From: an uncultured Elusimicrobia bacterium
GTDB taxonomy: Bacteria; Elusimicrobiota; Elusimicrobia; 2-01-FULL-59-12
DNA length: 64,000 bases
Direction: 5' to 3'
NCBI GenBank assembly: GCA_964506645.1
Contig: CAZDML010000002.1
Location: forward strand, 3,012-67,011
In this document: positions 51,301 to 64,000 of the stretch, in pieces
How the letters are laid out: the number at the start of each line of letters is the position of its first letter
Numbering within the stretch: the first letter of the stretch is position 1
The notes under the pieces: model-generated
Told to the model about the DNA's origin: nothing
The model's database searches: none
What the model saw: only the letters and a program-made list of their open reading frames with translations
Position numbers and translations under genes: made by a program

Positions 51301-54300
51301 CGAGGTCCAGGCCGTCGGTGTGCCAGTGCGGCCCAGGCCGTTCAAATTGTACGTTCCTGAACCGGCGAGCACGCTTTCGCCCGGCAGAATCACTTGCAGT
51401 GTCTGTGCGGCGCCTGACTGCACCGGAATTGCTGGGGATACATCCGAAGCCACATTGAGACCTGGGGCACTGGCGGTTAGCGTCCAGCCTGTGGTGCTGG
51501 CAGTCGTCATCGTCCAGGCCTGAATCGTGGATCCTGCGGTAAGAGCGATGGAGAGTGGATCGGCTTGATATTCTGCCGTGCGATTGTCGTACGGATCCGA
51601 GCTGGCCAGGGTCATGCCCGGAGGCGTGGTGTTGGTCTTGTTGAAGAAGCGGTCGACCGTGCGCACCGTAACATTAAAGGAAGTGCCGGCGGTGGCTGTG
51701 CTGATGGACGTAGTCACTTTGCCGGTGGCTGACCCAGGAGCAGCCGTCTGGCCAGGCACCAAAATCTGAACTGCGTTCACGCTGTCGGGAGCCATCGTCA
51801 TTACACCGGATTGATAGGGTGCACTCAGCGTGAAGCCAGTGGCCGACGCCGTCACAGTCTGTGTACTGGCGTTTCCTGCTGCATTTTCTGCCGTCTTCAT
51901 CATGAACGGAATAAGCTGATAACCGCCGGTCAAGATCTTCGGACTATCCGTAGAGACCGGCACGGCGTTACCGTCGGACGATGTCAGCGTAACGACCGGG
52001 GCCGTCGTCGTCACAATATTGTAGTAAGCGTCTACCGCACGGACTTCGACAAAGTAGGTGGTGCCCACAGCAAACGCATCGAGTGTGCCTGGGGTGGTCG
52101 GATAGTTGGAGTCCGGCGATCCGGATTTGCCGCCTCCTGTGGTATTGCCTTCCTGGCTCGTTTCACCCGGGGCCAGCACGAGGAGTTTCTGCGCCGTGTT
52201 GGCCTGGACCGGAATCCATGTGGAATAGCCCATCGTGTAGGGATCGCCCGTCGCGGTGGACACCATGAGCTGCCAGCCCGCCGGATTGCGTGTAATCAGC
52301 GTCACACCGGTAATGACCACCTGACCCGTCTGACCTCCCGAGCCGGTCTGGAAGCTGCCAAGACCCTGGATGCCGGATTGCGCATTCGTGTCATCCGTAT
52401 TGAGCTGAAGGAACGTCGTCGCCGATTCAGCCAGGTTGAAATAGGAGTCGACCAGGCGCGCCGTCACATTGAACGGCGTCCCCGCGGTTTGCGTGTTAGC
52501 TGTGCCTGTCTTACCGCCGGACTGTCCAGCGTCGTACGGTGCACGGCCCGGATCTGCTGTTTCACCCGGCACCAGGACGATCAGTTTCGTTGGGGCCGCC
52601 GCATGGACCGTAATCGGATCGGTGGTCGTGCTAATGAGCGGTGCGCCGCCGTAGCCGGTAATCGTAGAGACAAACACCGTCCACGGGCCCGGCGCTTTGC
52701 GGAAATTAATGGTGTAGGCCGTGGGGCCGTTTACAACGGTCGTCGCCGGATCTGTATCGTAGGGGTCGCTCGTAATCATCTGAATCTGCGGCGTGATATC
52801 GGTCTTCGTATTGTAGAAGCGGTCGGTGATCGTTACGGTCGAGATGTACGCCGTGCCGGCCACAGCATCCGTGATCGCACCCAGGAAACCGCGCGCGGTA
52901 CCCGGCGTGTAGGTTTGTCCCGGCAACACCACAAGGACGCGGTCGGTCGTGGTGGCATTCACAACGACAAAATTGGAGGTATCCGAGCTGACGGTAATGC
53001 CGGAGACTGCGGTGGTGGCCGCGCCGACGGTCCAACCCGGAGCGGTGTTCGCCACTTTAAAGGTGATGTTAAAGGTCGCCTGACCGGCCGAGAGGCTGTT
53101 GGCCGCCGGGTTTATCGCGTACGGATCGGTGGCGGTCACTTGCACGGTCGGCATCGTGCCGCTGGTGACTTTGTTGTACTTTGCGTCAACCATGCGCACG
53201 GTGGTCGCATACGTCGCACCTGCAACCGTCGCACTGACCGATCCGGACTTCCCGAAGCCTGGCACGGCCGTTTCACCCGGCATGAGGAGCTGCAGACGAA
53301 CCGGTGCGCCCTGATTGACTGGGATAGCGGCGGACGTTGCGGTCGTAAGGTTGTACGCGTTGGCGTAGAGCACCTGCGGACTAAACGTATCGGTCGACAC
53401 GGCCAGCGTCACACCCAGGGTCGCCACACTCTGACCGCCGGAGAGACTGACGGACTGCGATGCTGGCGTGCCGTAGATATCGGACAAAGTGACGGTGGCA
53501 ATGGTCACGGTCGAAACGGTGTTGTAGAACGCGTCGACCGCGCGGATAGCGCCAATGGGCAGTGTAAAGGCAATACCTGCGGTTTGGGTATTGGGCGTTC
53601 CTGTCTTTCCGGTCACCGAACCCGGCGCCGCGGTTTCACCTGGCAGTAAGATCTGCAGTTTCGAGAGTCCGGCCGCATTCACTTTCACCGGGCTCGATAG
53701 ATGGATGTTGAACGGCGTGCCGCTTGCCGTTCCCGAGCTCGTCAGGGTCCAACCGGTGGCAGTCGCAGTCCGCAGGATAATACTGGTGTTGTCGGACAAC
53801 ACACCGTTCGATGTGCCCGCACCATTGATCAGCGGGTTGAGTCCGAGGCTGACGACATTGGAGTCATTGGTAATCACATAAATATTCACAGGGTTTCCGG
53901 TGGTATTGGCTTCCACCAGGTTCCAGTAATCATCGACCACGCGCACCGTGATCGGCACCGCCACACCGGCAGTCTGCGTCACAATCGCTCCGGTCTTGCC
54001 ACCGTTATTGGTCGGCCAGTAGCCCGTGCCCTGTACCGGCGTTTCGCCCTGCACCAGGATCTGTAGATTTTTCTTGGTGACATCCGGGTCGATCGTCAGA
54101 TGTTCATAGGCTGAGTTAAAACCGGTGGCGGTCGCGGTGGAGGCCGTGAACGGTGCCAGCGAAAGGTCGTAATCGGTGGTGCGCTTCGTGACGAAGTTCC
54201 ACAGGAAAGTCGAGGTGCCTTGCGTCAGTCCGATGCTGAGAGACGGCGACGGTTTGGCGTTCGTATCGTCGGTCTGCACGTTGACCGTGACATTGGTAGA

Positions 54301-57300
54301 AATAATATTGCCCCAGGTATCGGTCGCATCCAACGTAAAGGTAATAGTGGAGCCAGCGACGAAGTGCGCATCCGAAGCCGGGCCCGTGCGGGGGCCGCTC
54401 TTTAATAAGGTAGAACCGGGCAACGCACTTTCGCCATTCACCAGCAAGCGCAAGTAGCGAGGGCTCGACGCACCGGAATCCGGATAGAGCGTAAAGGCCG
54501 GCGACGTATAAGTCGGATTGCTCAGACCCACGATATTGCCACGGATCGTCTGGGAGGATCCGTTGTAGTCGACCGCACGGAACAGGGTGACGCTGAACGT
54601 CGTCGTACCGCTGGTCAGTGATTTTGCACCGACACCTGTCGCGAACGGATCATCGGGCGAGCTCAAAGTGAGCGAGCTTCCAGAATTGGTCTGGTTCCAA
54701 TAGCCGTCGACCGCATATACCGTTACGATCTGCGGCGTACCGGCAATCCATGAGGTCGGCGTTCCAGATTTGCCCCCCGTTCCGCCTGTGGCCGGCGCAT
54801 AGGGAGGCTGACCTGCCTGATACGTTTCACCCGGCAACACCACAAGTACGCGGTCCGCGCTACCCGCGGTGATCGGAATCGCGGCGGCCGAACCAGACGT
54901 GTACGCGCCTGTGTGGAACATGGAAACGGTCTGTGATCCGGCCTGATACATCTGGATCGCAAAAGAAGTCGTGCCGCTGGCAAGCGGTTGTGTGGTGCCG
55001 TCCGTATCATACGGATCGGTCGTCTGGAACCAGACGTTACCGGTCGCCACGCCGCCCACCGCATTGTTGTACGCGTCTGTGATCGTTGCAGTCGCTTTCC
55101 ACACCGCGCCCGCAGTTGCGCCAGTCGGACTCCCTGAGATGCCGCTTCCCGCGTTAAGCGTGGTGCCCGGCACAGTCACCATAATCTTGGTCGGCGAGTT
55201 CGCCACAACCGGCAGAGCGGCGGACACTTCATCGGCCAAGCGCTGGCCCGTCACGGTCGACACACGCACCGTCCAGCCGCTGCCGGAAGCGGTGATAAAT
55301 TGCAGCGCGAACACCGTCGTCCCGCTGGTCAGGTCCTGCTGGATATTGGTCTGCGTCGCATTCGGATCGCTTTCGATCATCTTGATCTTGGCCGCCGCAG
55401 TCGAAATCAAGTTGAAGTAGCTATCCGTCGCATTCACCGTAGCGGAGTACATCTGGCCAGCCGTAAACGGCGTGGCCGGGCTGCCAGATTTTCCAGTCGG
55501 CGATCCTGGAGCGGCCGTCTGACCCTGCACGAGGAGCTGCAGTAAGGTGGCCGAGCCACTGATCACCGTAAACGAGGTGCTGGTAGATGCTGTGAAGTTG
55601 TAGGTGTTGGATGTCACCACGTTAACGAAGTACGACGCGGTGGTCGTGGAGCGGTTGACCGCTGTAACGACCGTCCCTGAGCCGCCCGACAAACCGAAGG
55701 AAGCGCCGCCCGGATACTGCGTATATAAGGAAGCATTCGCGCCGACACGCACGACCGGGTTGTCATTGACCAGGTTGTAGTACTGGTCCGTACCAACCAC
55801 GGTCACAGTGAACGTGGAACCGGCGACCGGGCTCACACCGCCAAAGGGGGTACCTGTTTTCCCGCTGGCGGCGACATTGCCCTGCGACAGGCTTTCGCCC
55901 GGCAGCAGGATAACCAGGAGATGCGGATTTCCGGCGTTGGTGTCCGGGTTCACAAGCAGCGGGCCTGCGCTCGCATAGGTGTAGCCCGGACCGGTATTGG
56001 TCGTCACTGTCACAGTCCAGCCCGTGGTCGAGGCCGACTTAAAGGTGTGGCCGTAGGTCGTGAAATAGGTGCCGCTATTGATCGATTTGGTCGTGTCCGG
56101 ATCCGGCGAATCGTACGGATCGGTCGTCGTCAGACTCAAATTGACCGCTCCGCCGGGATTATTGACCACGTTGTAGTATGGGTCGGTGAGGCGCACGGTG
56201 AGGCTGTAGCTCGTTCCAGCCGTCGCTGCGGTGATCGAGCCTGATTTTCCACCACCTGCCACATTGCCCGGCACGGCGGTTTCGCCGCCCAGAAGAATAT
56301 GCAGTTTTGTCGGGCTGGCCACTTGCATCGGGATGTTTTGCGACACGTCCGAGTTCAGTGTCCCTGTCGCCGTTAAGACGTGAGGAATTGATGCCCCGTT
56401 TGAGGCCTGCGCACTAAGCAGCGTGACCGAGTAAGTCGTCGAACCCGAGGTCAACGCCTTCGTCTGCGCCGTGAGGCCTGGCGTTCCGTAGGCGTCATCG
56501 CTGGTTAAATACGTCGCAACGTTGGTCGAGATAATGTTGTACCAGTCATCCGTCGCATTGACCGTAACGATGAACGCCTGGCCGGCGGTCTGTGTATTGG
56601 GAGTTCCCGTTTTTCCGGCCGGGTTACCCGCGCCGCCAAAGTCTGCCGGGATACCAGCGTCAGCCGTTTCACCCGGGGCCACAATCTGATAGCGCGAGAG
56701 CGTGTTGGCCGATACGGTAAAGAACGTGGAATCGGCTGCGGCATAGGTCAGGCCTGGATCCGTCGCCTCAATTTGGTGATTCGAACCCGCAGTGACCAGG
56801 GTCACGGAGGCAATAAAGGTAGCGTTGTACCCGTTGTTGCCGACGTTCGTCATCACGAGGCTCGGTGGATACGTGGCGTATTGATCCATCGGCAAGGACG
56901 CCGCCGAGGCCGCCAACTGAACGGTCGGGAACGGCAGACCAGACACGTTCTTAATCGGATTCGAATAGGCATCGACCAAGTTCACAATGACGCCCGGCGC
57001 CTGAATCGCCACACCCGCGGTCTGCGCGGTCGGCGTTCCCGTCTTGCCGCCTGAGCCTGGGACGTTGGTTTCACCCGGCAACAAGACCTGGAAGACAGCC
57101 GTGTTGCTGGACGCTTTCACGTTCACACTCGAAATGGTTTGCGACGAAATGGTCGCGCTGTCCGTATCGACCGCCGAGAAGCTCCAGCCCGACTGTGCTG
57201 TACGCGGTGTGAAGGAAGCAAACACCACTTGGCCTTGGTTCATGGGCGTTGTGGAATTACCCTGAACATAGACATCGTTGCCCACGGTTGCGACATTGTC

Positions 57301-60300
57301 AGCCACATTACTGGTGTAGATGCCTGGGGCCCCACGATTGCGGTTCCAATAGTGGTCAACCGCCTGGATCGTGATCGGGAAAGCCACACCAGCGGTTGCT
57401 GATCCCGGCAGCGCTGGATTGGTTTTCCCCGCACCCCCCGGTGAGGACCCTTCATCGTAAGTCTGGTTCGCGGTTAAGACGCGCAATTTCACCACCGGGC
57501 CCGGATAGACTTTTACCCAGGTCGATTGATCCATCGTGTAATAGGAGCCTGAGCCGCCGTCGGACGGGTCGTTCTGATCGCGCACCGTCATGAGCCAGCC
57601 TTTCAGGTTGCGCGTCGGGTTGGTCGAAGGCGATGTCGGGTTGTTCTGCGTGCGGTAGGTTACCGTGCCGATCGCCACACCGTTATTCAAACTCATTGCC
57701 AGGAAGATCGGCGTCAGGTTGGGATCGCCGCTGAGCGAGGTATCCGAGTGCATATTCACCACCGGCATCGGCAGGTTGTTCGTAATCAGGTTGTAGTATT
57801 GGTCCACCAGGCGCACCGTGAAGGTGCTGGCAATACCCGCGTAGTAGAAAGCAGGGCTTCCGCTCTTACCGCCGTTGGTCTGATTATAAGGAGGCAAACC
57901 CGGTACCGCGGTTTCGCCCTGCATCACCAGCTGCAGGCGCTGTGTACCGACCGAGGCCGTATCGGCACCCACCGTAAAGTTCGAAGTCACGTAATTCGGG
58001 TTCGTGAGGACCGAGGTCGCCAGCACCACCTGCGAACCGGCGGTCACCGGTACAAGCGAGAACGTGGTCACACCCGAAGCCAACGTCAAGGACGACGGCA
58101 CCACCGCATAGGTGTCACTGGAAAGCGAGATCCAGACCTTATCCAGACTGTCCGAGGTGTCCGTGTTATAGAACGAGTCGACCCCATAAACAGTTGCCAC
58201 GAGTGTATTTCCGGCCAGGATACCATTCGGTGTACCGCTCTTACCCAGCGGTGTTGTCTGGTATTTGCCCTGGACACGCGACTCACCCGGCAGCATCACC
58301 AAGAGACGATTGGCCGTTCCGGGATTGATCGTAATATTGCTCGAGGTATTTCCTGTACCGGCACCAGAGACAGCCATTGTCTGCACGCCGGCACTTACCA
58401 TGGTCTGATTAAAGATGGTGGTTCCGGAAGAGAGCGGCTTATTGCCCGGATCTGTATCAAAAGAATCGGAGGTCGTCGCCGTAATCGTCGGGTTGCTTGA
58501 CGGCGTGACATTCCAATATTGGTCGACGGCGTTCACAGTAACTGTAAAAGGCGCCCCAGCAGTAAAGCTCAGAGGAATGGTGTTCTTGCCGGCCGGGGCT
58601 GTCGTTTTACCCCCCGCGTTGGTTTCGCCCTGGATCAAGACCTGTAATCCGACGGTTGTGTTGGGCACGACATTAATGCCCGTCTGATTGCCCGCTGAAA
58701 CGGCCAAGCCCGACACACGAGACACGGTCAGTGTACGGCCCAGCGCCGCTTTCAGCAGAGTGAGGCCATTGGTAAAGACATGAGTACCGTTATCCGATCC
58801 CGGTACAAAAGTGTAATTTGCCGGAAGGCCGGCGCCTGCACTTTCTGGTCCGATCGTAGCATCGGGATTGGCAATCGAGAAACCAACGGTACCGTTATAC
58901 GACAGTGCCACACCATTGGCGTTATCGAGCGCATTGACTGTGATGTCACGCGATGTACCGGCCGTGATATTGGTCGTCGTATCCACAATCACCTGCAGAT
59001 GATCGGCGGGCAAGGTCACGATAAAGTTGTTGCCGTTGCCGATGTCCGAGTTGGACTCGATGTTGCCGGCATTATCAATGGAGCGCGCCTTTGCCCAGTA
59101 GCGCTTACCGGAAATCCAAATACTGTTACTCGAGTAGCTCCAGTTAAGCGTTCCCGAAGCGTCGAGCCAGGAGTTGGCTTCATCGGTTCCGACGCGTGAG
59201 AAGGAGGAGTTGTTGACTGCGTTAAAGCTGGACGGATTGTAGAAATAGTCCTCCGGTCCCGCCGACTGGCCGGTGGGCGCGTTATCCAAACGCAGGGAGA
59301 TCTGCACTTTTCGGATGCCGGCTAGACCGACATCGGCCGCAGTTCCTGCGATGCTGGCCGGGTTCTGCTGCACGTCGTTATCGGCGGGTGATGACACAGC
59401 ACCGTGTGGCGTATCCGTATCAAAGATAACGGTCGACGTTGTGCCAGGGGTTTCCGTATTGCCCACCGCATCCACCGCATAGGCATGAACAATATAAGTC
59501 GCCCCGTTAGTCAGATTGACGGCATCAAGACCTGTGTTCCAATAGGACCAGGAAGCCGTCGATGTCGCAATTAGGAAATATTCCGTAGTCGCACCGAAAT
59601 TCGCGCCGTTAAAGTAGTGGGTCGCACCACCGCTGAGTTCTTCCACTGAGACATACACACGAGAAACACCCGCCGGATAAGTATTCGGGTCGCTGGCCGT
59701 TCCGGAAATAACCGTCATCGGTTCGATGATGGAATGGGCAGCGCCGTTCACCGGTTTCTGGATCAGTGTGATGGGCGCCGTTGTATCGAGAGTAAAGGTG
59801 ACGGTGTTGTACGCCACTTCAAAGTTGCCCGAACGGTCGTTGGCACGCGACTGGATGGTGTAACGGTCATCGGTGTACACGTTGGTTGAAATCGCCGGAC
59901 CTGTGGTCACTGACCAGGTGTAGTTGGGCAGTATGCCCGGGGTGACTTGTGCCGCCAACGGGAAGTTGAGGCTCGTGCCGGAGTTATCAAAGAGCGCCGT
60001 ACTCGGGTTGTAATATTGGCCCGAAGAATTGCCAATACGAATCTTGACACCGCCTGAGGCGATACCAGATCCGTTGGAACTGACATCACTGGCGGTCCCG
60101 CTGATTACGAGCGGCCCGGAAGACAGTCTCACATTGTTGGTGGGCAACGTCGTTTGTGATGTCGGTGAGCTGCTATCCACCGTGAAGTTAATGCCCCCCG
60201 CGCCCGTGACAAAATCAAACGTGGAGCCGAGGTTGCCGATCGGAATATTACCGGCATTATCGCGTGCGCGCACAAACATCTTGTAGCGGGCGTTGGAGCT

Positions 60301-62127
60301 GAAGGCGCCGGAGAGACTGTTGTAGCTCCAGGTGCCACTCGTAATGCCTACGACTGTCGCGCTCAACCACGGCGTACAACCGCTCGAACAATCGCCTGTC
60401 CAGCCACTGCCGTTCCAATAGGCATTGAGGGTATCCACAAACGCCACATCCACCGCCAAAATACCTGATCCTGTCGATGTATCGTCCATGGTGCCCGAAG
60501 CTAATGTCACCGCTTGTGGCACGCCACCGTTGGACGGCACGGAAATCTGCGACGTTGCTGTGCTGCTGTCGTAAAGTAGAGAAACCCCTGTGCCCGCCGG
60601 AACATCGGTGTTGAGCGGGCCAAATTCTACATTGCCCGCCTGATCGGTCGCGCGGCTGACAAAACGATAGCTGATACCGCTCGTAAAGGCGCTCTGCAGA
60701 CCGCCTGGCAGGCTGGAGGTCCAGGTGTTGGGAATCGGCGTGGTGCTGTTGGTGACAGTCAGCGTCGCGTAGTTCGGATCGGTAGCGCTGAAGTTAGCCC
60801 CATTCCACCACAAATTGTTGCTCAGACGCTTCACGGCCAATTGCACCGCACCGGTCGAGATCCATGCCGGGTTATTGAGGGCTCCGCTCAAGTTGTCCGT
60901 GGCCGTCCCGGAGACAGAAACCGCCGTGGTCGTTGTGAAATAGAGACCGCTGGGCGAGGAGATGGTGGTGGTCGGTATCAACACGTCGTAAACAAAGCGG
61001 TTCGTCACCGTGGTGACGTTACCGGCATTATCGCTTGCGCGCACCGCAAGGTCGTAACGGTGATCGTTCTTAAAGAAGAGGCTGGCATGCGTGTAGGTCC
61101 AGTTGGCCGTCGTCCCCAGCGCACCGATGAAGAACGGTCCGCCGGCAGTAAAGGTGCTGCCTGTCCAGTAGTTCGGCCCCCCGCCATCGACATCGGTCAG
61201 AGAAATCGTGACAGTACTGATGCCAGACGGTGTTCCACCCGGATCGCTGGAGGTTCCGGCAAACGGCGTGGAAATCTGAATCTGCGAGTGGAATGCGTTG
61301 TTGAGTGGCTGCGAAATGGTAACGCTCGGCACAGACGTATCATAGGTAAAGGTTGAAATCGTACTGATGTACGTGTTGCGATGCGGCGTCACTCCCGTGC
61401 CGGTCACGTTGTCCTGCACCTGCAGTTTCAGATAGTAGTTCTTATCTGACACCAGCGATGGCAAGGTGTAGGTCCAGGACGAGACAAAGATGGTCGCCAC
61501 ATTCGAAGAAATGGTCGGGATCCAGGCGGCGCCGTTCCAATAGACTTTGCTGCCGCCCGTACCACTGGAGAGTTGCACGTTTACATTGTTAACACCGGCC
61601 AAGTCATCGGACATGGTGCCCGTCAGAATGACCGTTGCGCTCGACACCGAGGCATTGGCTGCTGGCCACGTTAAGGAAGCCGTCGGCGATGTGAAATCGA
61701 TATTGAAGTTGAGGCTTGTCGTTGCGCTGATGTTCCCACCACCCGTTCCATCGCCCAGCGTGGTCTTGTCTTCTGAGCGCACATCGAGCGTCATGACATG
61801 GCTCATATCGGTCGGCCAGGTAATATCCACTCCGCTTTGCACATCGTAGTCCCAGTTGCCTGTGCCCGAACCCGATACCGAGCCGCCCGCATTCAGCCAA
61901 GCCGTTGTGGCATTCACGCTGGTCGAAGAGAACGTCGCGCCGTCCCAATAATAGGTAGAAGATCCCCGATGGATTTGTTCCAGCATCGGTGTCCGTTCCC
62001 TGAAGCGAGGTATTGTTCGCCACCACACCCAGTTCGCTCGGCTGATAGGAGATATTGGCTGTCGGTGTGGAGATGATAGGCGCGTTGGGTGCCGTCTTAT
62101 CAATAAGCATCGAAAATGACGAGACAT
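39337..62127 (-). CDS. giant extracellular multi-Ig-domain protein, main reading frame (7596 codons). It has, in order, He_PIG/HYR-like Ig modules, ~35 tandem ~95-aa invasin/intimin-like (Big-type) Ig domains, a divergent beta-rich region, seven ~230-aa modules with a DxNxDG motif, FN3, and a T9SS/Por-type (FlgD-Ig-like) C-terminal sorting domain
   Basis: A single 22.8-kb ORF. The Big-like repeats (about 58500-48450) share the pattern ..LLPGET(A/S)xPG..GK(T/S)G(T/S)P..QTAG..F.VTV.AVD.(Y/F)(W/Y)N..........V.L.(T/S)SD.., for example KLQLLIPGETAVAGYIAGGAKGKTGLPTTATAGTNYNVTVRLTDSYYNV. The DxNxDG modules (about 45300-40700) include DINNDGKFQPE at 45216-45248 and WKDINDNGIFDD at 42105-42150. FN3 is ..VTLQWPVPSDYGPSGIFAYKIRQFEG... 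The C-terminal tail ..NYPNPVDTRKGGLEGKTFITYLLAGDADVEITIYDLLGYRV..GGYLAQIKAGGQKGSATVIRKIGVIH (39650-39337) resembles the Por_Secre_tail/FlgD-Ig domain. The first ~55 codons of this ORF (62127-61965) are out of frame; the real N-terminus continues in the 61604-64000 frame. Confidence 0.8.
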   Translation of the reverse strand: MSRHFRCLLIRRHPTRLSSPHRQPISPISRANWVWWRTIPRFRERTPMLEQIHRGSSTYYWDGATFSSTSVNATTAWLNAGGSVSGSGTGNWDYDVQSGVDITWPTDMSHVMTLDVRSEDKTTLGDGTGGGNISATTSLNFNIDFTSPTASLTWPAANASVSSATVILTGTMSDDLAGVNNVNVQLSSGTGGSKVYWNGAAWIPTISSNVATIFVSSWTYTLPSLVSDKNYYLKLQVQDNVTGTGVTPHRNTYISTISTFTYDTSVPSVTISQPLNNAFHSQIQISTPFAGTSSDPGGTPSGISTVTISLTDVDGGGPNYWTGSTFTAGGPFFIGALGTTANWTYTHASLFFKNDHRYDLAVRASDNAGNVTTVTNRFVYDVLIPTTTISSPSGLYFTTTTAVSVSGTATDNLSGALNNPAWISTGAVQLAVKRLSNNLWWNGANFSATDPNYATLTVTNSTTPIPNTWTSSLPGGLQSAFTSGISYRFVSRATDQAGNVEFGPLNTDVPAGTGVSLLYDSSTATSQISVPSNGGVPQAVTLASGTMDDTSTGSGILAVDVAFVDTLNAYWNGSGWTGDCSSGCTPWLSATVVGITSGTWSYNSLSGAFSSNARYKMFVRARDNAGNIPIGNLGSTFDFVTGAGGINFTVDSSSPTSQTTLPTNNVRLSSGPLVISGTASDVSSNGSGIASGGVKIRIGNSSGQYYNPSTALFDNSGTSLNFPLAAQVTPGILPNYTWSVTTGPAISTNVYTDDRYTIQSRANDRSGNFEVAYNTVTFTLDTTAPITLIQKPVNGAAHSIIEPMTVISGTASDPNTYPAGVSRVYVSVEELSGGATHYFNGANFGATTEYFLIATSTASWSYWNTGLDAVNLTNGATYIVHAYAVDAVGNTETPGTTSTVIFDTDTPHGAVSSPADNDVQQNPASIAGTAADVGLAGIRKVQISLRLDNAPTGQSAGPEDYFYNPSSFNAVNNSSFSRVGTDEANSWLDASGTLNWSYSSNSIWISGKRYWAKARSIDNAGNIESNSDIGNGNNFIVTLPADHLQVIVDTTTNITAGTSRDITVNALDNANGVALSYNGTVGFSIANPDATIGPESAGAGLPANYTFVPGSDNGTHVFTNGLTLLKAALGRTLTVSRVSGLAVSAGNQTGINVVPNTTVGLQVLIQGETNAGGKTTAPAGKNTIPLSFTAGAPFTVTVNAVDQYWNVTPSSNPTITATTSDSFDTDPGNKPLSSGTTIFNQTMVSAGVQTMAVSGAGTGNTSSNITINPGTANRLLVMLPGESRVQGKYQTTPLGKSGTPNGILAGNTLVATVYGVDSFYNTDTSDSLDKVWISLSSDTYAVVPSSLTLASGVTTFSLVPVTAGSQVVLATSVLTNPNYVTSNFTVGADTASVGTQRLQLVMQGETAVPGLPPYNQTNGGKSGSPAFYYAGIASTFTVRLVDQYYNLITNNLPMPVVNMHSDTSLSGDPNLTPIFLAMSLNNGVAIGTVTYRTQNNPTSPSTNPTRNLKGWLMTVRDQNDPSDGGSGSYYTMDQSTWVKVYPGPVVKLRVLTANQTYDEGSSPGGAGKTNPALPGSATAGVAFPITIQAVDHYWNRNRGAPGIYTSNVADNVATVGNDVYVQGNSTTPMNQGQVVFASFTPRTAQSGWSFSAVDTDSATISSQTISSVNVKASSNTAVFQVLLPGETNVPGSGGKTGTPTAQTAGVAIQAPGVIVNLVDAYSNPIKNVSGLPFPTVQLAASAASLPMDQYATYPPSLVMTNVGNNGYNATFIASVTLVTAGSNHQIEATDPGLTYAAADSTFFTVSANTLSRYQIVAPGETADAGIPADFGGAGNPAGKTGTPNTQTAGQAFIVTVNATDDWYNIISTNVATYLTSDDAYGTPGLTAQTKALTSGSTTYSVTLLSAQASNGASIPHVLTATGTLNSDVSQNIPMQVASPTKLHILLGGETAVPGNVAGGGKSGSITAATAGTSYSLTVRLTDPYYNVVNNPGGAVNLSLTTTDPYDSPDPDTTKSINSGTYFTTYGHTFKSASTTGWTVTVTTNTGPGYTYASAGPLLVNPDTNAGNPHLLVILLPGESLSQGNVAASGKTGTPFGGVSPVAGSTFTVTVVGTDQYYNLVNDNPVVRVGANASLYTQYPGGASFGLSGGSGTVVTAVNRSTTTASYFVNVVTSNTYNFTASTSTSFTVISGSATLLQLLVQGQTAAPGSPTGKSGSPATPFTAGQMYSATVNATDSYFNLISTAAAKIKMIESDPNATQTNIQQDLTSGTTVFALQFITASGSGWTVRVSTVTGQRLADEVSAALPVVANSPTKIMVTVPGTTLNAGSGISGSPTGATAGAVWKATATITDAYNNAVGGVATGNVWFQTTDPYDTDGTTQPLASGTTSFAIQMYQAGSQTVSMFHTGAYTSGSAAAIPITAGSADRVLVVLPGETYQAGQPPYAPATGGTGGKSGTPTSWIAGTPQIVTVYAVDGYWNQTNSGSSLTLSSPDDPFATGVGAKSLTSGTTTFSVTLFRAVDYNGSSQTIRGNIVGLSNPTYTSPAFTLYPDSGASSPRYLRLLVNGESALPGSTLLKSGPRTGPASDAHFVAGSTITFTLDATDTWGNIISTNVTVNVQTDDTNAKPSPSLSIGLTQGTSTFLWNFVTKRTTDYDLSLAPFTASTATATGFNSAYEHLTIDPDVTKKNLQILVQGETPVQGTGYWPTNNGGKTGAIVTQTAGVAVPITVRVVDDYWNLVEANTTGNPVNIYVITNDSNVVSLGLNPLINGAGTSNGVLSDNTSIILRTATATGWTLTSSGTASGTPFNIHLSSPVKVNAAGLSKLQILLPGETAAPGSVTGKTGTPNTQTAGIAFTLPIGAIRAVDAFYNTVSTVTIATVTLSDIYGTPASQSVSLSGGQSVATLGVTLAVSTDTFSPQVLYANAYNLTTATSAAIPVNQGAPVRLQLLMPGETAVPGFGKSGSVSATVAGATYATTVRMVDAKYNKVTSGTMPTVQVTATDPYAINPAANSLSAGQATFNITFKVANTAPGWTVGAATTAVSGITVSSDTSNFVVVNATTTDRVLVVLPGQTYTPGTARGFLGAITDAVAGTAYISTVTITDRFYNTKTDITPQIQMITSDPYDTDPATTVVNGPTAYTINFRKAPGPWTVFVSTITGYGGAPLISTTTDPITVHAAAPTKLIVLVPGETADPGRAPYDAGQSGGKTGTANTQTAGTPFNVTARLVDSYFNLAESATTFLQLNTDDTNAQSGIQGLGSFQTGSGGQTGQVVITGVTLITRNPAGWQLMVSTATGDPYTMGYSTWIPVQANTAQKLLVLAPGETSQEGNTTGGGKSGSPDSNYPTTPGTLDAFAVGTTYFVEVRAVDAYYNIVTTTAPVVTLTSSDGNAVPVSTDSPKILTGGYQLIPFMMKTAENAAGNASTQTVTASATGFTLSAPYQSGVMTMAPDSVNAVQILVPGQTAAPGSATGKVTTSISTATAGTSFNVTVRTVDRFFNKTNTTPPGMTLASSDPYDNRTAEYQADPLSIALTAGSTIQAWTMTTASTTGWTLTASAPGLNVASDVSPAIPVQSGAAQTLQVILPGESVLAGSGTYNLNGLGRTGTPTAWTSGVSNTLTVNAVDKHFNVVPTASISVKVTPSDLFVSPQTISLIGTTNYAFTLQTATPTASFTALRMSGTPLDASSSSVTSSQITVNANSVVKLQILVPGETAVPGSTTGKTSVSITTQAAGVAFPVTVNVVDLNWNKVPANVKVQLTTTDPYAPALNPQTLSAGATIFQMVFARASSSWTITASTTSDSVTTVSSNTSAVVPVTAGPAAKLQLLIPGETAVAGYIAGGAKGKTGLPTTATAGTNYNVTVRLTDSYYNVQSAATMPSVLLTSTDPFDNESAYLGGNPQSLSAAVAVYGVTPVTAGTWTYTAADQSALGYSSDTSTNVFVQAGAPTKLLIALPNQTLVAGSGINGTAATQIAGVDMPATVYVTDAYSNIVSTGRNPIYVGTNDAYDTDPGSYSLSSGQLQVSSINVQTAGLTTVTAVSNDTNAPALTLASSTFTVTAAGASKLQLVLPGETAVPGNVLMTRGVSGSPNAQTAGVVFYPTVNITDGFWNLVASATGTLRVTSSDPNDQSTGPWTSDGLDPVAINVTTGSYTFPMTLLTSTNTGWTLTAQDLGTSNYTQSLTAAIAVSANSSGGATRKLLTVLPGETPSYGTATGKAGSPSAYTVGNLLQVSVYVTDKFFNTITVPPANPGANTADVQISIVGNQDPYAVNPSTQAINAASGQTTFVYTLYKATTEFFRADDVTVGHGTAWTSSISSQFTASPKSATKLLLLLPGETATPGSGAPGKTGTVNTFVAGSTYTATLQVSDTYFNAVTSHLTEQVAVRTSDPYDTEPATQTISNGQSVANVTLQFRTASTGTASAVDTNLVDPTTTWATSVSPDTGSFNVLAGSATKLMVVMPGEAPLQGSATGRTGSPTSQVAGTAFVTTVYLTDAQYNLVSLGTMPEVLLTSNDSDVNWQSPANPSQLLNGVGYMPWTVVASSAQLSFVITASTTPTTPVGTTAITSGASNALRVYPGPKHHLHITGLPTTSSAGVGFSGCVVMHDAYHNILSTGPHTSTSTVTSISFNAETTGNGYLTDGNQDPPWLPGTTTFNLITGSGQKCLTNYFSLRAAGSRWLQAVDDSDPINVNSTRGWTIDTNNVWSPTGVVYSTPSYITVTPGAPSQWVVDPAGDQNVPAGTLSSLGRWPVTARLADPYDNYADSAGITVALTTANVSGVAGTISFDASASSAVPPVPTTSTVTNSSGAVSVYYYVSSHAGDYGAVRFSATVGAQPVANQSGRMITTGGDTSKLAFVSPPVSQTAGQDYLHLPLFTLERRDDFDNPTDYQGSTVQLDYTANGQVAVHAGRGFSSSNHDYEFQDPNLLGVPITNLAFSGGDTQKTFVYFDKMSSTPIEDGRVGTWTLRAYIGGTGYANSNVRTSYDLIVNPDAKAQIAFHNPVRTLVAGTPLSLTGNPNLSYLNLEIQDTYGNPTPVVSTATLFLASYRVVSSSYDAYGFSSSTSYFAAPPAPSFVNPITTVTINSGFWGTTFYYLDTNASENYTAPVSSPMLRAFSTGTIDGALLSTGTQKVTISPNALYQIGFLSAPSALVAGTTSQQFRFASEDIFGNPSPITNSAAVFTLTTDVPGTASFATPYSTSAFQSGTSSATIAVGQSTMTFYMKDTLAGDRTVTISRNGFVSANSTYTVAPAPASQLVFATPSRYLVAGTTVQYEPNYSVGAPTNTVITVRAMDPYLNISSVTANTVVNFYVSNSTGAYGYTDASNLSLFKYIPGPVLPNVLPVQMLAGNSSVSMYYYDTQQGTRTMVAFDSVGALTSATTTHFISPAPAAYLTIEPINNVNNPMPVNNLLPFGNIVARDQFGNVARGDVKNGQYYTGTVQFGTSGSTTTVQIYDATDLAHVVSSYTFKVADAGTYSNLLMTDSVQETLHVSATDFVTVVPPVVPSNNAFDPNEDTLQGWTNDAARIVPVHSYGDLVTAGVVMTPVDLSPVPTTDPTYNAKQVLLLGTRWQGKTSLAQGDGTVPVDPQYLPVPMMRLSFQVQPPTYSSSTIISQIVLTKNLASGALADSDIAELDLNYDINNDGKFQPESTYQGVQPDPMVSSTTFVNGVATFANLSLPITAASAKNYFVSVRVASDVVTALPANLGLKVTAASQVTVVGLGMASNNFPVVTSTSPVLRQPATIRVDGQDLAAWWDPGTGLGQQNYVSQGSDQVGMLRLGFWTDAFQGAVNRIRVSRTGTGDDTDIADVKIYKDCNSDGVFTPSLDNCDITSGATFVNQVTSITLNSNLIVTPTTSYVFIAYHLSPSASLNTQGASVRNPSDIFPADGTVGAFSQINSTQVPVQPSTDELDLTRVNDPANGFNIGQVATQGDTDVVAMKMTLAVRNPLGGGLVNSAIWNHLRLDRGNPNGFNHARDIDAIRVYYDNNNDGLFEVNADTLVTSTSKVYEFPHEVLTADVDASTTVIPVNDASAYPPAPGLVWIDDEQMTYTALDLTNNKLTGVVRASSGTVAAAHTAGTDVEGQAYLDLVDPNGILNGQEILVTPKNYFIVMDINYLANVNSQDSLGVEIASTSYFVVDTPDLVGNHSGNIGLPPLGQTAGTYITNVKEYVDTVVLTSTNTTVGDYLQQGATNQAVLRFDMRTNHARAGFTGITVSRAGTAADSDITSVKVWYDRAGTGIFNVAVDSPPLGSGVFGNPAAGLARINFDTVTYSTDLNDLTTGPLKVDTAVRKLNNYFITFDMANIATPQNTIGVTVSSPVFVNISAPNTMSGTNMPASSKLRTIIPKPQRLQASSTYYFSTDTGNYPLPHLLAPVMSNDVTATLNTSSGMPTSGLMVIDAEVLGYTGILGNVLTGLSRCVSGSCTTPPAIHSTYTYVNSVEQPNYIGVNYTQGMRNVALIKFSLQDIDDYNIRWFSLDLGRTPGGLSGADSDLSAVKVYSGDTLYRTSDGEIGIQNTLVGSGVSQFGSIHLAVNDPNLGSPGYVLISTAPATYWVVADISQSATAGHAFALNAITKDAFTVGALVAGDGIHSVMPTNFPMQTGDHVIGATVDTMTVVFTDLLPTVIQQNATNVPVAKMNLKVNQNTVIWTGLTLTRTGAKPDDGDVLRMNVWKDINDNGIFDDGNTLPLSTLSQAITASDSSLQVAVSTSFPIGPAVLLVGSELIRYANNDLAGNFTGLTRGFLGTTAAVHAIATNVRGVVNDTLVSDAGTKPGQITPGTDNFTNSVRAITFTAQQIIPNVTDKITGMNYFITYDINPFVPVYRDLNNNGVQDAGEAVSIGGLISATTSFAVITPDLVTLSANPPLTTKLAAFSEYPDQVSFSPDTSITPVYATQGDKDIPILKFSLRSNVSTALFNTLKISRKGAGAVQTQGSNDDIGLVKVYRDVNFNGILEPTTDELISSGTFVQPDPNGTNPKTVQLTIKDQLLSPTTQTYFVAYDIATGATSNNTEGLTIIDPGWFGGSFTPIGVDQMLPNGIPVESRQVTISPLTVRVSGQSLAPGSALEGEASVPLMSVTIQPSINQVVVSSLTLTQLGTITTSTGTPPNLVGDGDFSRLYVHLDTNYNGKLDAGDSLLGSLPWGTTSSGFIGGLATIPFSTAVSINTSGATLLVSADIGTVDGSGAATQGHSAGISVASAGAITMTPLTALQDQSNVYPIRSALVPIFNFQTVQVGTVTMRPDLTTSTVSGLEGVYMPEAWVHDQGAISAHWTTVPPSLPANVTVTYQVGMSASSNTTIAPSLTGWVSLSQTPPITLTGLGLEDTKTYYFFVRTITTINGLTLPPSPVMMGTVHVDVTKPAPPSKFINLPKTSNTGIVTLQWPVPSDYGPSGIFAYKIRQFEGTSPVPTEIIMTSTPSYTFGSNINNNAPAYSLHAPGGAASIGGASTTSPLVYLNGETGAARSPNNFYRWQIQTINGAGTASEWSTISETVNTGLPEDIISEVSNYPNPVDTRKGGLEGKTFITYLLAGDADVEITIYDLLGYRVMHWSFPGGTEGGRQGPNTVPPGGWDGTNEAGQKVSKGGYLAQIKAGGQKGSATVIRKIGVIH

Positions 62128-63991
62128 TCAGGACAAAATTGCTCTGTGCATTATTGGCCATGTCGATGGCACGCATCACGACCGCATAGCGGGTATCGGT
62201 CACCAGACGCGAATCCAGATTGCCGCCATTGGTGTACTGCCAGGTTAGGGTCGACCCTTCCGCCGCTAAAAAGTTCGGTGTCGATTGAACGAGGACGAAG
62301 TTACTGCCATTGAACCACTTGGCCGAGGTTAAGTTCTGCAGGGCAATTTGAATGGTGCTCACGCGTACGTCATCATTCGATGTTCCAGTGATATTAGGCA
62401 GGGAACGAATGCCCGTGAGACCCATGAGCGGCAGCGTGACGGTCGCCGTCGGCGCGACGTTATCGTAAGTCACGGTCACGCCCACGTTCGCAGGAATGTC
62501 GGTCACGAGCGGACCAAATTCCGCATTGCCCGCAGTGTCCGAGGCGAGGCTCACGATATAGTAAGACGTACCGCTGACCAGAGACGTAATGAAGGCCGCC
62601 GGCATGGTGGATGTCCAGGTGTTGGGCACCGTCAGGCTGGTGTTGGTTACCGTAAAGGTGCTGTAGGTCGGATTGGCGCCCAGGAAGTTCGTTCCGTTCC
62701 ACCACTTGGCATCGCTTAAGCGTTCTACGGCCAGTTTTACACCATTCACCGGCACGCTGGACGGATTCACCGGTGCCCCCACGAGATCCGATGCGGTCCC
62801 GCTGATTAAGGTCCAGGACGTCACATACCCCGCGAGCGGGAAGGTCACGACCGAGGTTGGTTTCACCACGTCGTAGACGAAGCGGTTCGTGGTGGTTGAA
62901 ATATTGTTGGCCGAGTCGATTGCACGCGCCAATACATCGTAGCGATGGTCGTTCTTAAAGAAGAGCGATGCATGGGTGTAGGTCCAGTTTGCGGTCGTGC
63001 CTTGCGCCGCCAGGTAGAACGGTCCGCCCGCCGTAAAGGTGCTGCCGTTCCAGTAGTTCCCCGCATCGATATCCGTTAAGGCGATTGATACCGTGCTTAC
63101 GCCCACGGGCACCGAGCCCGTATCCGAAGACACTCCGGCAAACGGCGTCGACACCGAGACCGCCGAGTAGAAGCCGTTGGCCACCGGCAAGGTGATGCTG
63201 ATGTTCGGCGCCGAGCGGTCGTACGTAAAGGTGGAGAGCGCGCTCGTATAAATGTTCGGGTTTGACAACACGTTATCGGTGGCTTTTACACGCAAGTAGT
63301 AATTCTGATCATTGGTCAGAGTCGGCAATGTATACGTCCAGGACGAGCTAAAGAGCGTTGTGGCAACCCACGTCACGTTGCTTTGCGTAGTGGTCCAGCT
63401 GGATCCGGTCCAGTAATACTTTGTCACCGTGCCGCTGGAGAGTTCCAAGGCCAGGGCACTCACGCCGGAGAGATCGTCCGACATTGTTCCGGTGACGATC
63501 ACAGTCGCACTCGATACCGCTGCGTTGACAGAGGGCCAGTCAATGGAGACCGTGGGCGATCCAAAATCGATCTTAAAGGTGGTCGTGGAATAAGAACTAA
63601 AATTGCCTGAGCCGGTCCCGTCGATCAGCGTCGCGTTATCTTCCGAGCGGGTTTCCAACACCATGCCATGACTCATATCGGTCGGCCAATCAATATCCGA
63701 ACCGCTGGTGTTGTTGTAGTTCCAGGCCGTGCCCGCACTCTGCCAGGCCGTGGTTGCATTGACGCTGGTAGAGGAGAATGCAGCCCCATCCCAATAATAG
63801 GTGCTGCCACTCAAGACATAAGAAAGACGAATGTCCACACGTTTAATCCCGGAGGGGTTCGTGCCCGGATCACTATCGGTTCCACGAATCTGCGAATTGT
63901 TGACGATATGACCGATATCGGACGGCTGATACGCCGCGCCGTTGCTCGGCACGCTGACCGTCGGTGCGTTCGGAGCAGTCTTATCGATCAA
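60650..63991 (-). repeat. long tandem intragenic repeat: about 1.88-kb unit (copy 1 63988-62108, copy 2 62107 to about 60650, becoming diverged), each starting LIDKTAPNAP; the window edge cuts a preceding copy
   Basis: Protein-level alignment of the two copies. Shared blocks include STYYWDGA.FSSTSVNATTAW, WPTDMSH.M.L..RSED, SSATVI.TGTMSDDL.GV, SSWTYTLP.L..D.NYYL, STFTYD, STPFAG.SSD, and GSTFTAGGPF..A.GTTANWTYTHASLFFKNDHRYD...RA.D.A.N..T.TNRFVYDV. At the DNA level, GCAGTCTTATCGATCAAGAT matches GCCGTCTTATCAATAAGCAT at the copy starts. Confidence 0.5.
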
Positions 63992-64000
63992 GATCGTATA
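61604..64000 (-). CDS. 5' portion of the same giant gene in a different frame (open at the window edge; frameshift relative to the main frame near 61960-61970)
   Basis: The frame is open from nt 64000 (..YTILIDKTAPNAP..; the track's 'M' at 63991 is a TTG Leu codon). It encodes about 680 aa of Ig-like modules ending ..GTDTDAGTNPSGI, then runs out of frame. The main ORF resumes the homologous sequence (..GSSTYYWDGATFSSTSVNATTAW..) in another frame. Copy 1 has ..NPSGIKRVDIRLSYVLSGSTYYWDGAAFSSTSVNATTAW.. and copy 2 lacks about 38-40 nt there. Confidence 0.7.
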   Translation of the reverse strand, partial: YTILIDKTAPNAPTVSVPSNGAAYQPSDIGHIVNNSQIRGTDSDPGTNPSGIKRVDIRLSYVLSGSTYYWDGAAFSSTSVNATTAWQSAGTAWNYNNTSGSDIDWPTDMSHGMVLETRSEDNATLIDGTGSGNFSSYSTTTFKIDFGSPTVSIDWPSVNAAVSSATVIVTGTMSDDLSGVSALALELSSGTVTKYYWTGSSWTTTQSNVTWVATTLFSSSWTYTLPTLTNDQNYYLRVKATDNVLSNPNIYTSALSTFTYDRSAPNISITLPVANGFYSAVSVSTPFAGVSSDTGSVPVGVSTVSIALTDIDAGNYWNGSTFTAGGPFYLAAQGTTANWTYTHASLFFKNDHRYDVLARAIDSANNISTTTNRFVYDVVKPTSVVTFPLAGYVTSWTLISGTASDLVGAPVNPSSVPVNGVKLAVERLSDAKWWNGTNFLGANPTYSTFTVTNTSLTVPNTWTSTMPAAFITSLVSGTSYYIVSLASDTAGNAEFGPLVTDIPANVGVTVTYDNVAPTATVTLPLMGLTGIRSLPNITGTSNDDVRVSTIQIALQNLTSAKWFNGSNFVLVQSTPNFLAAEGSTLTWQYTNGGNLDSRLVTDTRYAVVMRAIDMANNAQSNFVLNVSSFSMLIDKTAPNAPIISTPTANISYQPSELGVVANNTSLQGTDTDAGTNPSGIFYLLLGRRDVLFDQRECHNGLAECGRLGIGFGHRQLGLRCAKRSGYYLADRYEPCHDARCALRRQDHAGRWNGWWEHQRNDKPQLQYRFHIADGFLNVASSQCLGVERNGHSDGHHVR

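Follow-up and report, generated by a model that had tools for sequence, protein, structure and literature searches.

Why does the reading frame change inside a giant surface-protein gene on the minus strand of a 64,000-nt stretch of DNA (the window) from an uncultured Elusimicrobiota bacterium? Mechanically, this gene is read as two ORFs, 39337..62127 (7596 aa) and 61604..63991, the latter open past the window end. The original prediction had placed the frame switch within the second 1.9-kb repeat unit, next to the run gatccccgat, and had offered three explanations: an assembly error, a genuine disruption and slipped-strand phase variation. The first two survived testing, and the third was left unsupported.

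A Single 38-nt Gap in the Second Repeat Unit

The frame switch was borne out by six-frame translation. Unit 1 was read as ...GTDSDPGTNPSGIKRVDIRLSYVLSGSTYYWDGAAF... and unit 2 as ...GTDTDAGTNPSGI, followed by nonsense in the same frame; ...SSTYYWDGATF... picked up again in the frame of the 7596-codon ORF. Thus, the upstream ORF (>64000..61961), whose last in-frame residues are ...GTNPSGI (Ile codon ATC at 61963-61961), gives way at the junction to the 7596-codon ORF, and the run is indeed located at 61961-61970. The missing stretch, predicted to be 38-40 nt and not a multiple of three, was exactly 38 nt: alignment of both units with MAFFT (64000-63700(-) vs 62125-61850(-)) showed a lone gap in unit 2, exactly 38 columns long, with flanks 76% identical, and the unit-to-unit spacing was 1884 nt upstream of the junction versus 1846 nt downstream, a difference of 38. 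Placement of the gap is ambiguous within GGATC (61961-61965), the G4 run occupying 61964-61967. The loss shifts the frame by +1, and adding the 38 nt of unit 1 to unit 2 generated one ORF of 8,233 codons in the window. Since all other indels between the units (16/16) are in frame and no homologous domain examined is without the segment, this gap is not attributable to chance.

Coordinates of features in and around the giant gene (positions within the window)
Feature	Position	Strand	Description
Junction	61954..61972	(-)	Coding strand CCATCGGGGATC, then TTCTACC; 38-nt gap between 61961 and 61960
38 nt of unit 1 lacking a unit-2 counterpart	63807..63844	(-)	AAACGTGTGGACATTCGTCTTTCTTATGTCTTGAGTGG, encodes KRVDIRLSYVLS-
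Repeat unit 1	62117..64000	(-)	About 628 aa, five Ig-like domains; truncated by window end
Repeat unit 2	60240..62116	(-)	Paralogue of unit 1; 3' limit approximate
Upstream in-frame part (frame A)	61961..64000	(-)	680 codons; 5' end off window
Out-of-frame tail of upstream ORF	61604..61960	(-)	118 nonsense codons and stop 61606-61604
Out-of-frame "leader" of 7596-codon ORF	61966..62127	(-)	54 codons, MSRHFRCLLIRRHP...
Downstream in-frame part (frame B)	39337..61965	(-)	7542 codons and stop; begins G-S-S-T-Y-Y-W-D-G
C-terminal domain	39361..39645	(-)	Weak, sub-threshold match to T9SS type A sorting domain
Next gene downstream	37405..39021	(-)	PorV/PorQ-family outer-membrane protein, C-terminal TPR repeats

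The Missing Segment Encodes a Conserved Beta-Strand

The gap sits in the first Ig-like domain of unit 2, where the missing bases code for IKRVDIRLSYVL, a core beta-strand that is 12 residues long and conserved (I-x-x-V-x-I-R-L-S-Y-x-L). In the AF2 model, the segment is predicted to form strand E52-63, which pairs with E66-70 (pLDDT 72-85). This strand was found in unit 1 and in seven relatives, in 12 of the 13 paralogous Ig-like domains, and in all 261 homologous domains (96 proteins), none of which lacks more than five of the 12 strand columns. Its presence in unit 1 and throughout these paralogues and homologues indicated that the gap is a lesion and not natural variation.

Further analysis showed that frame A has homology to P0001-P0009. 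In this G+C-rich gene, off-frame open runs of at least 121 codons account for 0.6-2% of all runs. The leader of the 7596-codon ORF is Arg-rich and overlaps real frame-A coding sequence; it lacks the hydrophobic core of a signal peptide, and neither a signal peptide nor a promoter-like site was found for the downstream ORF. The C-terminal domain matched TIGR04183 with 19.3 bits (cutoff 23, E 8e-4), and the product of the next gene matched NF033709 with 107.9 bits (cutoff 90), besides UPF0164 and TPR models. The repeat array may continue, with further units, past the end of the window.

A Very Young Deletion or a Local Assembly Error

No second lesion was detected in the 22.6 kb downstream and 2 kb upstream of the junction (about 24.7 kb of intact flanking frame), and some 20 genes nearby are full length, aligning with Pfam models practically from end to end. 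The loss of 38 bases is therefore an ordinary lesion with two candidate origins: a real deletion of very recent date, or an error made locally during assembly. We favor by a small margin, at a probability of roughly 0.45, a real, very young deletion allele in the sequenced DNA, either newly fixed or a strain variant taken by the assembler; a gene of at least 8,233 codons would thereby have lost 38 bp in one event. Such a deletion would have arisen by replication slippage or by a microhomology-mediated event between two copies of the pentamer GGATC that stand 38 nt apart (GGG ATC ...33 nt... GGA TCT TCT ACC), the collapse of which gives the observed CCATCGGGGATCTTCTACC exactly. The proposed GGA TCT repeat is plausible because P0002 carries G-S-T-T where the deletion model needs G-S-S-T. 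As evidence, this microhomology is weak, since GGATC/GATCC occurs 99 times in the 24.7 kb. The N-terminal piece, with its export signal presumably off-window, would stop after the 118 nonsense codons, short of the C-terminal sorting domain. The remaining 7,542 codons would keep the T9SS-like domain and have neither a signal peptide nor an evident start of their own. With both pieces defective, the surface protein would not be made, and the allele would be null or a young pseudogene.

The rest of the contig looks accurate, with six ORFs on record as full proteins and no Ns. The junction shares no exact repeat of at least 15 nt with any other part of the window, which leaves an assembler without an ambiguous graph path on which to lose 38 nt. 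Against a real deletion, the nearest homologues are at most 53% identical, no close relative was present in the collections searched, and the deletion has no independent support. Besides, flanks free of a second lesion follow directly if the loss is an artefact; a real one would have to have happened extremely recently.

A local assembly or consensus error, with the 38 nt present in the real genome and the gene unbroken over at least 8,233 codons in the window, is a serious possibility, though short of even odds. What this explanation predicts is exactly a lone lesion with perfectly open frame to either side, as seen over 24.7 kb, and the single ORF recovered on inserting the 38 nt of unit 1 fits it as well. 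The source, a single 78-kb NCBI contig, comes from an uncultured Elusimicrobiota lineage and is most likely part of an uncurated MAG. A curated MAG had roughly one local assembly error per 90 kb (PMC7111523), and an error of this kind broke a giant gene into two neighbouring ORFs (bioRxiv 10.1101/2023.11.21.568195). The original prediction had ranked misassembly first on the ground that the lesion lies inside a near-identical repeat. That reason failed, since the units share only about 70% nucleotide identity over 926 aligned nt (55% aa over 593 residues), no exact repeat of at least 30 nt exists anywhere in the giant gene, and within 100 nt of the junction on either side exact matches to other parts of the window reach 14 nt at most. 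The usual repeat-driven route being unavailable, an assembly error would have arisen through merged contig ends, a strain bubble or a local re-assembly step, and not because the 1.9-kb repeat had been collapsed. Overlapping contig ends, once merged, would yield the same GGATC signature as a deletion. However, junction k-mers must be present in the reads for de Bruijn-graph contigs, which would count against an error. Nor was any other error visible in the 64 kb, where all tested genes are full length and none of the 51 homopolymers of at least 6 nt causes a frameshift.

Improbable Rivals: Two Events or Regulated Expression

It is improbable that unit 2 naturally carries a tolerated in-frame deletion of 39 nt (13 codons) combined with a gain of one base in the neighbouring G run (G3 to G4, by mutation or homopolymer sequencing error). 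Removing one G from G4 does give a single ORF of 8,220 codons reading ...GTNPSGSSTYYWDG..., and 16 other in-frame indels separate the units. But two events are required where one is enough, the strand is predicted to pair in a core hairpin and its loss is tolerated in none of the 261 homologous domains, and no other homopolymer error was visible despite 77 G/C runs of at least 4 in the gene and 51 runs of at least 6 in the window.

Finally, it is very unlikely that both ORFs are joined in some cells by slipped-strand phase variation at G4/C4, or on some ribosomes by programmed +1 frameshifting at UCG-GGG-AUC: the shift required is +1, which altering the G run by a single base provides, but the junction showed no slippery site, in-frame stop, rare codon, SD-like stimulator, Rfam or other RNA element, conserved structure, promoter or terminator, the rejoined product would still lack the core strand, and every homologue has this region in frame, strand included, so that the shift is not conserved. 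Large surface proteins are typical phase-variation targets; yet the G4 run, an unremarkable one among the 77 in the gene, is far shorter than known contingency tracts, and losing 38 nt differs from a reversible change in tract length.

Localization of the Frameshift Within the Giant Gene

The giant gene was present on the minus strand as two overlapping ORFs (Table), and a frameshift within its long repeat had been proposed to split it. Translation of the minus strand in three frames and DNA alignment of the two repeat unit regions confirmed this frame switch. Unit 1, the upstream of the two paralogous units, reads ...LIDKTAPNAPTVSVP...GTDSDPGTNPSGIKRVDIRLSYVLSGSTYYWDGAAFSSTSVNATTAW..., and unit 2, which starts 1,884 nt downstream, reads ...LIDKTAPNAPIISTP...GTDTDAGTNPSGI and then turns into nonsense in the same frame. 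Past the junction, SSTYYWDGATFSSTSVNATTAW carries on in the +1 frame, which is that of the 7,596-codon ORF. The alignment contained a single gap of exactly 38 columns, with flanks 76% identical, and the units, spaced 1,884 nt ahead of the junction, were spaced 1,846 nt beyond it. The missing stretch, which had been estimated at about 38–40 nt and not a multiple of three, could in this way be refined to exactly 38 nt. The remaining 16 indels between unit 1 and unit 2 were all in frame. On the coding strand the junction reads CCA TCG GGG ATC, continuing directly with TTC TAC C, and the run 'gatccccgat' was found at 61961-61970, as originally placed. With the 38 nt of unit 1 inserted, the window contained a single uninterrupted reading frame, 8,233 codons long and still without its 5' end.

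Table. Coordinates of the giant gene, its parts, and neighboring features.
Feature	Position	Strand	Remarks
Giant gene, both halves	39337-64000	(-)	
ORF of 7,596 aa	39337..62127	(-)	ORF listing
Overlapping upstream ORF of 795 aa	61604..63991	(-)	ORF listing; frame open up to window end
Upstream in-frame part	61961..64000	(-)	
Downstream in-frame part	39337..61965	(-)	
Repeat unit 1	62117..64000	(-)	
Repeat unit 2	60240..62116	(-)	
Junction	61972-61954	(-)	
Central modules (family D1)	about 48700-58000	(-)	
Weak GEVED-domain and SdrD B-like matches	about 41600-42200	(-)	
TIGR04183 match	39361-39645	(-)	
PorV/PorQ-family outer-membrane gene	37405-39021	(-)	NF033709, 107.9 bits vs. cutoff 90; fused to TPR repeats
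ORFs of 685 aa and 1,677 aa	30171-37283	(-)	

Conservation of the Lost Strand

What unit 2 lacks is the coding sequence for I-K-R-V-D-I-R-L-S-Y-V-L. This strand is carried by seven relatives obtained by protein search (e.g., IKGVGIRLSYLL, ISQVQMQLSYVL, PKDVQIRLSYLS, and VKDVQVRLSYLF), and an equivalent strand, G-[VI]-x-x-V-x-[VIL]-x-[LI], precedes the YWNG motif in 12 of the 13 Ig-like domains of the N-terminal part of the giant protein, the sole exception being the domain at the junction. Cluster representatives were searched exhaustively with the unit-1 domain, which yielded 93 proteins at an E of 1e-3 or better. An HMM was built from intact domains and every domain match in 96 matching proteins was aligned; 261 domains spanned the region. 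The 12 strand columns were gapless in 212 of them, the worst case lacked 5 columns, and loss of the strand was found in none of the 261. When the unit-1 domain was modeled with AlphaFold2 (mean pLDDT 56, which is low, but 72–85 over residues 51–90), residues 52–63, exactly the lost segment, came out as a long beta-strand followed by another one at residues 66–70 (STYYW). On these alignments the 38-nt gap is a lesion: a loss that is not a multiple of three within conserved coding sequence, as in frameshift-disrupted genes with intact homologues, removing a universally conserved beta-strand. Natural variation, i.e., a domain that simply does without the strand, was rejected on the same count of domains, and two natural adjacent genes were excluded because the break sits in the middle of a conserved domain.

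Close relatives were sought in several collections. Protein searches gave none (best match, 53% identity), GTDB representative genomes contained only Elusimicrobiota or Endomicrobiia loci 25–29% identical, and nothing was found in JGI metagenomes. The closest homologues of the giant gene (45–53% amino acid identity) are at L001 (1-14841), L002, and L003 (1-22703), three loci on ENA contigs with names ending in _np1212. In all three they are cut into many consecutive ORFs on the same strand, some of which end out of frame (as the homologous protein P0004 does at its C-terminus), a pattern that resembles single-base indel errors in long-read assemblies. These chopped nanopore assemblies were unusable as intact references.

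A Young Deletion or a Local Assembly Error

We favor a real, very young deletion allele, with a probability of about 0.45; a local assembly error is almost equally likely. No further decay, in the form of the extra stops or indels to be expected of an old pseudogene, was found across the 7,542 codons downstream and the 680 codons upstream of the junction, and off-frame stop-free runs in the giant gene had a median of 16–22 codons. The openness of both parts against that median therefore requires selection on the whole frame until very recently, and a real lesion would consequently have to be extremely young, a segregating or just-fixed null allele.

As to how such a deletion could arise, we infer a possible origin at GGATC pentamers. 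The ancestral unit 2, as long as unit 1, would have read GGG ATC (11 codons) GGA TCT TCT ACC, with two GGATC pentamers 38 nt apart and in different codon phases; loss of one pentamer together with the spacer would leave exactly CCATCGGGGATCTTCTACC. P0002, a homologous protein, has G-S-T-T where this slippage model requires G-S-S-T. GGATC/GATCC is frequent, however, with 99 occurrences in 24.7 kb, and the same signature would be left by an overlap merge of contig ends.

If the deletion is real, the upstream product would end in 118 nonsense residues and would not have the C-terminal sorting domain. Independent expression of the downstream codons was unsupported: a scan revealed no sigma-70-like promoter site for the downstream ORF, the mechanical N-terminus of the 7,596-codon ORF is Arg-rich nonsense with neither a signal peptide nor a hydrophobic core, and translation from the one in-frame ATG in the vicinity (about 61986) would start MLEQIHRGSST..., also with no signal peptide. 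Since neither a promoter-like site nor a signal peptide was found, the part bearing the type IX secretion system (T9SS)-like C-terminal domain would not reach the periplasm. The deletion allele, if real, would thus be expected to be null. Both halves of the giant gene were absent from a collection of 15 billion proteins in which six neighboring proteins of the same 78,047-bp NCBI contig were present, which would be consistent with the source record annotating the giant gene as a pseudogene.

In the original prediction an assembly error had been ranked first, on the ground of a near-identical repeat. This ground proved wrong, since identity between the units is about 70% for nucleotides, over 926 locally aligned nt, and 55% for protein. 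Tandem Repeats Finder reported no tandem array, the giant gene contained no exact repeats of 30 nt or more, and the junction, taken with 100 nt on each side, shared no exact word longer than 14 nt with any other part of the window. For lack of a sufficiently similar repeat, neither collapse nor a misjoin caused by the repeat can serve as the mechanism, and both were rejected as far as the window sequence goes. An error of assembly that is local and not driven by the repeat is a serious contender, to which we give somewhat less than even odds. It directly predicts a single lesion with frames open on both sides, and local errors in which no repeat is the driver are well documented (PMC7111523; 10.1101/2023.11.21.568195). 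Thirteen of them were reported in one 1.13-Mb MAG, one being within a repeat-containing gene (Chen et al., 2020; PMC7111523), and two giant ORFs lying side by side in an Illumina-only assembly became one gene once a local assembly error was fixed (West-Roberts et al., 2023; 10.1101/2023.11.21.568195). However, the sequence shows no mechanism for such an error, and elsewhere the contig is clean. No other signs of an error-prone assembly were found in it from Pfam lengths (about 20 neighboring genes match Pfam models essentially end to end), Ns (none in the window sequence), or recorded proteins (six window ORFs are on record as complete proteins), and none of the 51 homopolymer runs of 6 nt or more showed a visible frameshift. 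Both surviving explanations, deletion and assembly error, were already among the candidates first proposed, although the rationale for their ranking has fallen and phase variation, the third candidate, was discarded (see below).

Two separate events, in which a 39-nt deletion was tolerated and a 1-nt insertion or error was added, would be an improbable account. If the G4 run is shortened by one G, the two frames merge into one of 8,220 codons, which reads ...GTNPSGSSTYYWDG..., but this explanation is less parsimonious than one event and at odds with the universal conservation of the strand. More doubtful still is a real frameshift that is tolerated or exploited, with occasional +1 slippage of ribosome or polymerase at G-GGG-A rejoining both ORFs. 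Cells would in this way produce a surface protein of >8,200 aa with one crippled domain, in low and varying quantity, and a giant T9SS-like cargo would be switched on and off at a low level. No conserved frameshift was found among the homologues, each of which has the strand and stays in a single frame across the region, and no RNA element was matched at the junction in Rfam. Programmed +1 frameshifting was rejected, UCG GGG AUC UUC being accompanied by neither a stop nor a stimulatory element and the 0 frame staying open for 118 codons. Phase-variable homopolymer tracts are usually 7 nt or more. Slipped-strand phase variation was not supported, the run being only G4 and not a long simple-sequence tract (the giant gene has 77 G/C runs of 4 or more, and its longest homopolymer is 6 nt) and the intact state differing by 38 nt, conserved strand included, and not by tract length alone.

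Architecture of the Giant Protein and Neighboring Genes

The N-terminal part of the giant protein is a run of Ig-like domains that comprises the two 1.9-kb units, of five domains each, and further diverged domains. Pfam recognized next to nothing in the giant protein as a whole and was essentially empty over this region: Ig-like families (Big_13 and Big_3_2) gave no above-threshold match in the giant protein, with Big_3_2 alone appearing at 17 bits against a gathering threshold of 23.3. Relatives have faint precomputed Big_13 matches, and the AlphaFold2 model of the unit-1 domain is beta-rich, at low confidence overall. The central part consists of many modules of about 120–130 aa (about 125) beginning ...KLQILVPGETAVPG... 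(family D1); a 42-nt core was found in 16 copies at spacings of about 360–400 nt or multiples, and no Pfam family matched the module. In the C-terminal third, the GEVED-domain and SdrD B-like matches were both below Pfam thresholds.

The C-terminus of the giant protein matched TIGR04183, the T9SS type A sorting domain, at 19.3 bits, which is sub-threshold against a cutoff of 23. The next gene directly downstream codes for the PorV/PorQ-family protein, so that a PorV-type partner adjoins the giant gene. This arrangement suggests a putative pair of T9SS-like cargo and shuttle in an Elusimicrobiota genome. Other T9SS components were not identified in the window, and the N-terminus of the giant gene lies beyond position 64000. 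The two ORFs of 685 and 1,677 aa are extremely AT-skewed (−0.26 to −0.35 for the plus strand) and matched no Pfam family beyond C-terminal TPR repeats and weak SMC/coiled-coil models; they are probably long coiled-coil proteins of the same gene cluster. For the transketolase encoded in the window, the best relatives with a name come from Elusimicrobiota (65–69% identity), the best relative overall being 72% identical; the host is therefore placed in an uncultured, sparsely sampled lineage of Elusimicrobiota, most likely known from a MAG.

Significance and Comparison With Known Systems

The main value of these results concerns annotation. The two ORFs should be annotated as a single gene, at least 8,233 codons long and lacking its 5' end; to list a 7,596-aa protein, whose Arg-rich N-terminus is invented, and another of 795 aa would be wrong. 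Should the deletion be real, the largest surface protein of this population would be represented by a null allele, a small datum on the dispensability of giant genes; if it is an artefact, this is a further example of giant genes being under-counted through local assembly errors. The lesion is of an ordinary, already known kind, and neither outcome alters current understanding.

Contingency loci with poly-G or poly-C tracts occur in surface genes of Neisseria, Haemophilus, and Campylobacter. As in them, the frameshift described here lies beside a G/C run in a surface-protein gene and a one-base change restores the frame, but the tract is of 4 nt, and the real difference is of 38 nt including a structural strand, not a tract-length polymorphism. 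Large bacterial surface adhesins are also known as young frameshift pseudogenes, with a single lesion and specific to a strain. The giant gene resembles them in its single deletion, not a multiple of three, within an otherwise intact, very long ORF with intact homologues, and in the uncoupling of a presumably signal-bearing N-terminus from the C-terminal anchoring or sorting domain; it differs in that the allele is known from one sequence and no additional decay is visible.

Giant genes split by assembly errors in metagenomes (West-Roberts et al., 2023; 10.1101/2023.11.21.568195; Chen et al., 2020; PMC7111523) are alike in that very long same-strand ORFs abut, one small correction fuses them, the gene is internally repetitive, and it comes from an uncultured bacterium on one contig. 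Those cases are from Omnitrophota, of 30,000–85,000 aa, and the error was demonstrated with reads, whereas here an error would be read from the sequence alone, and the gene holds no repeat similar enough for a misjoin. Finally, compared with T9SS cargo and its PorV shuttle in Bacteroidota, the C-terminal match is below the curated cutoff and the host belongs to Elusimicrobiota, but both have in common a Por_Secre_tail-like C-terminus, weak in this case, and a PorV/PorQ-family gene immediately downstream.
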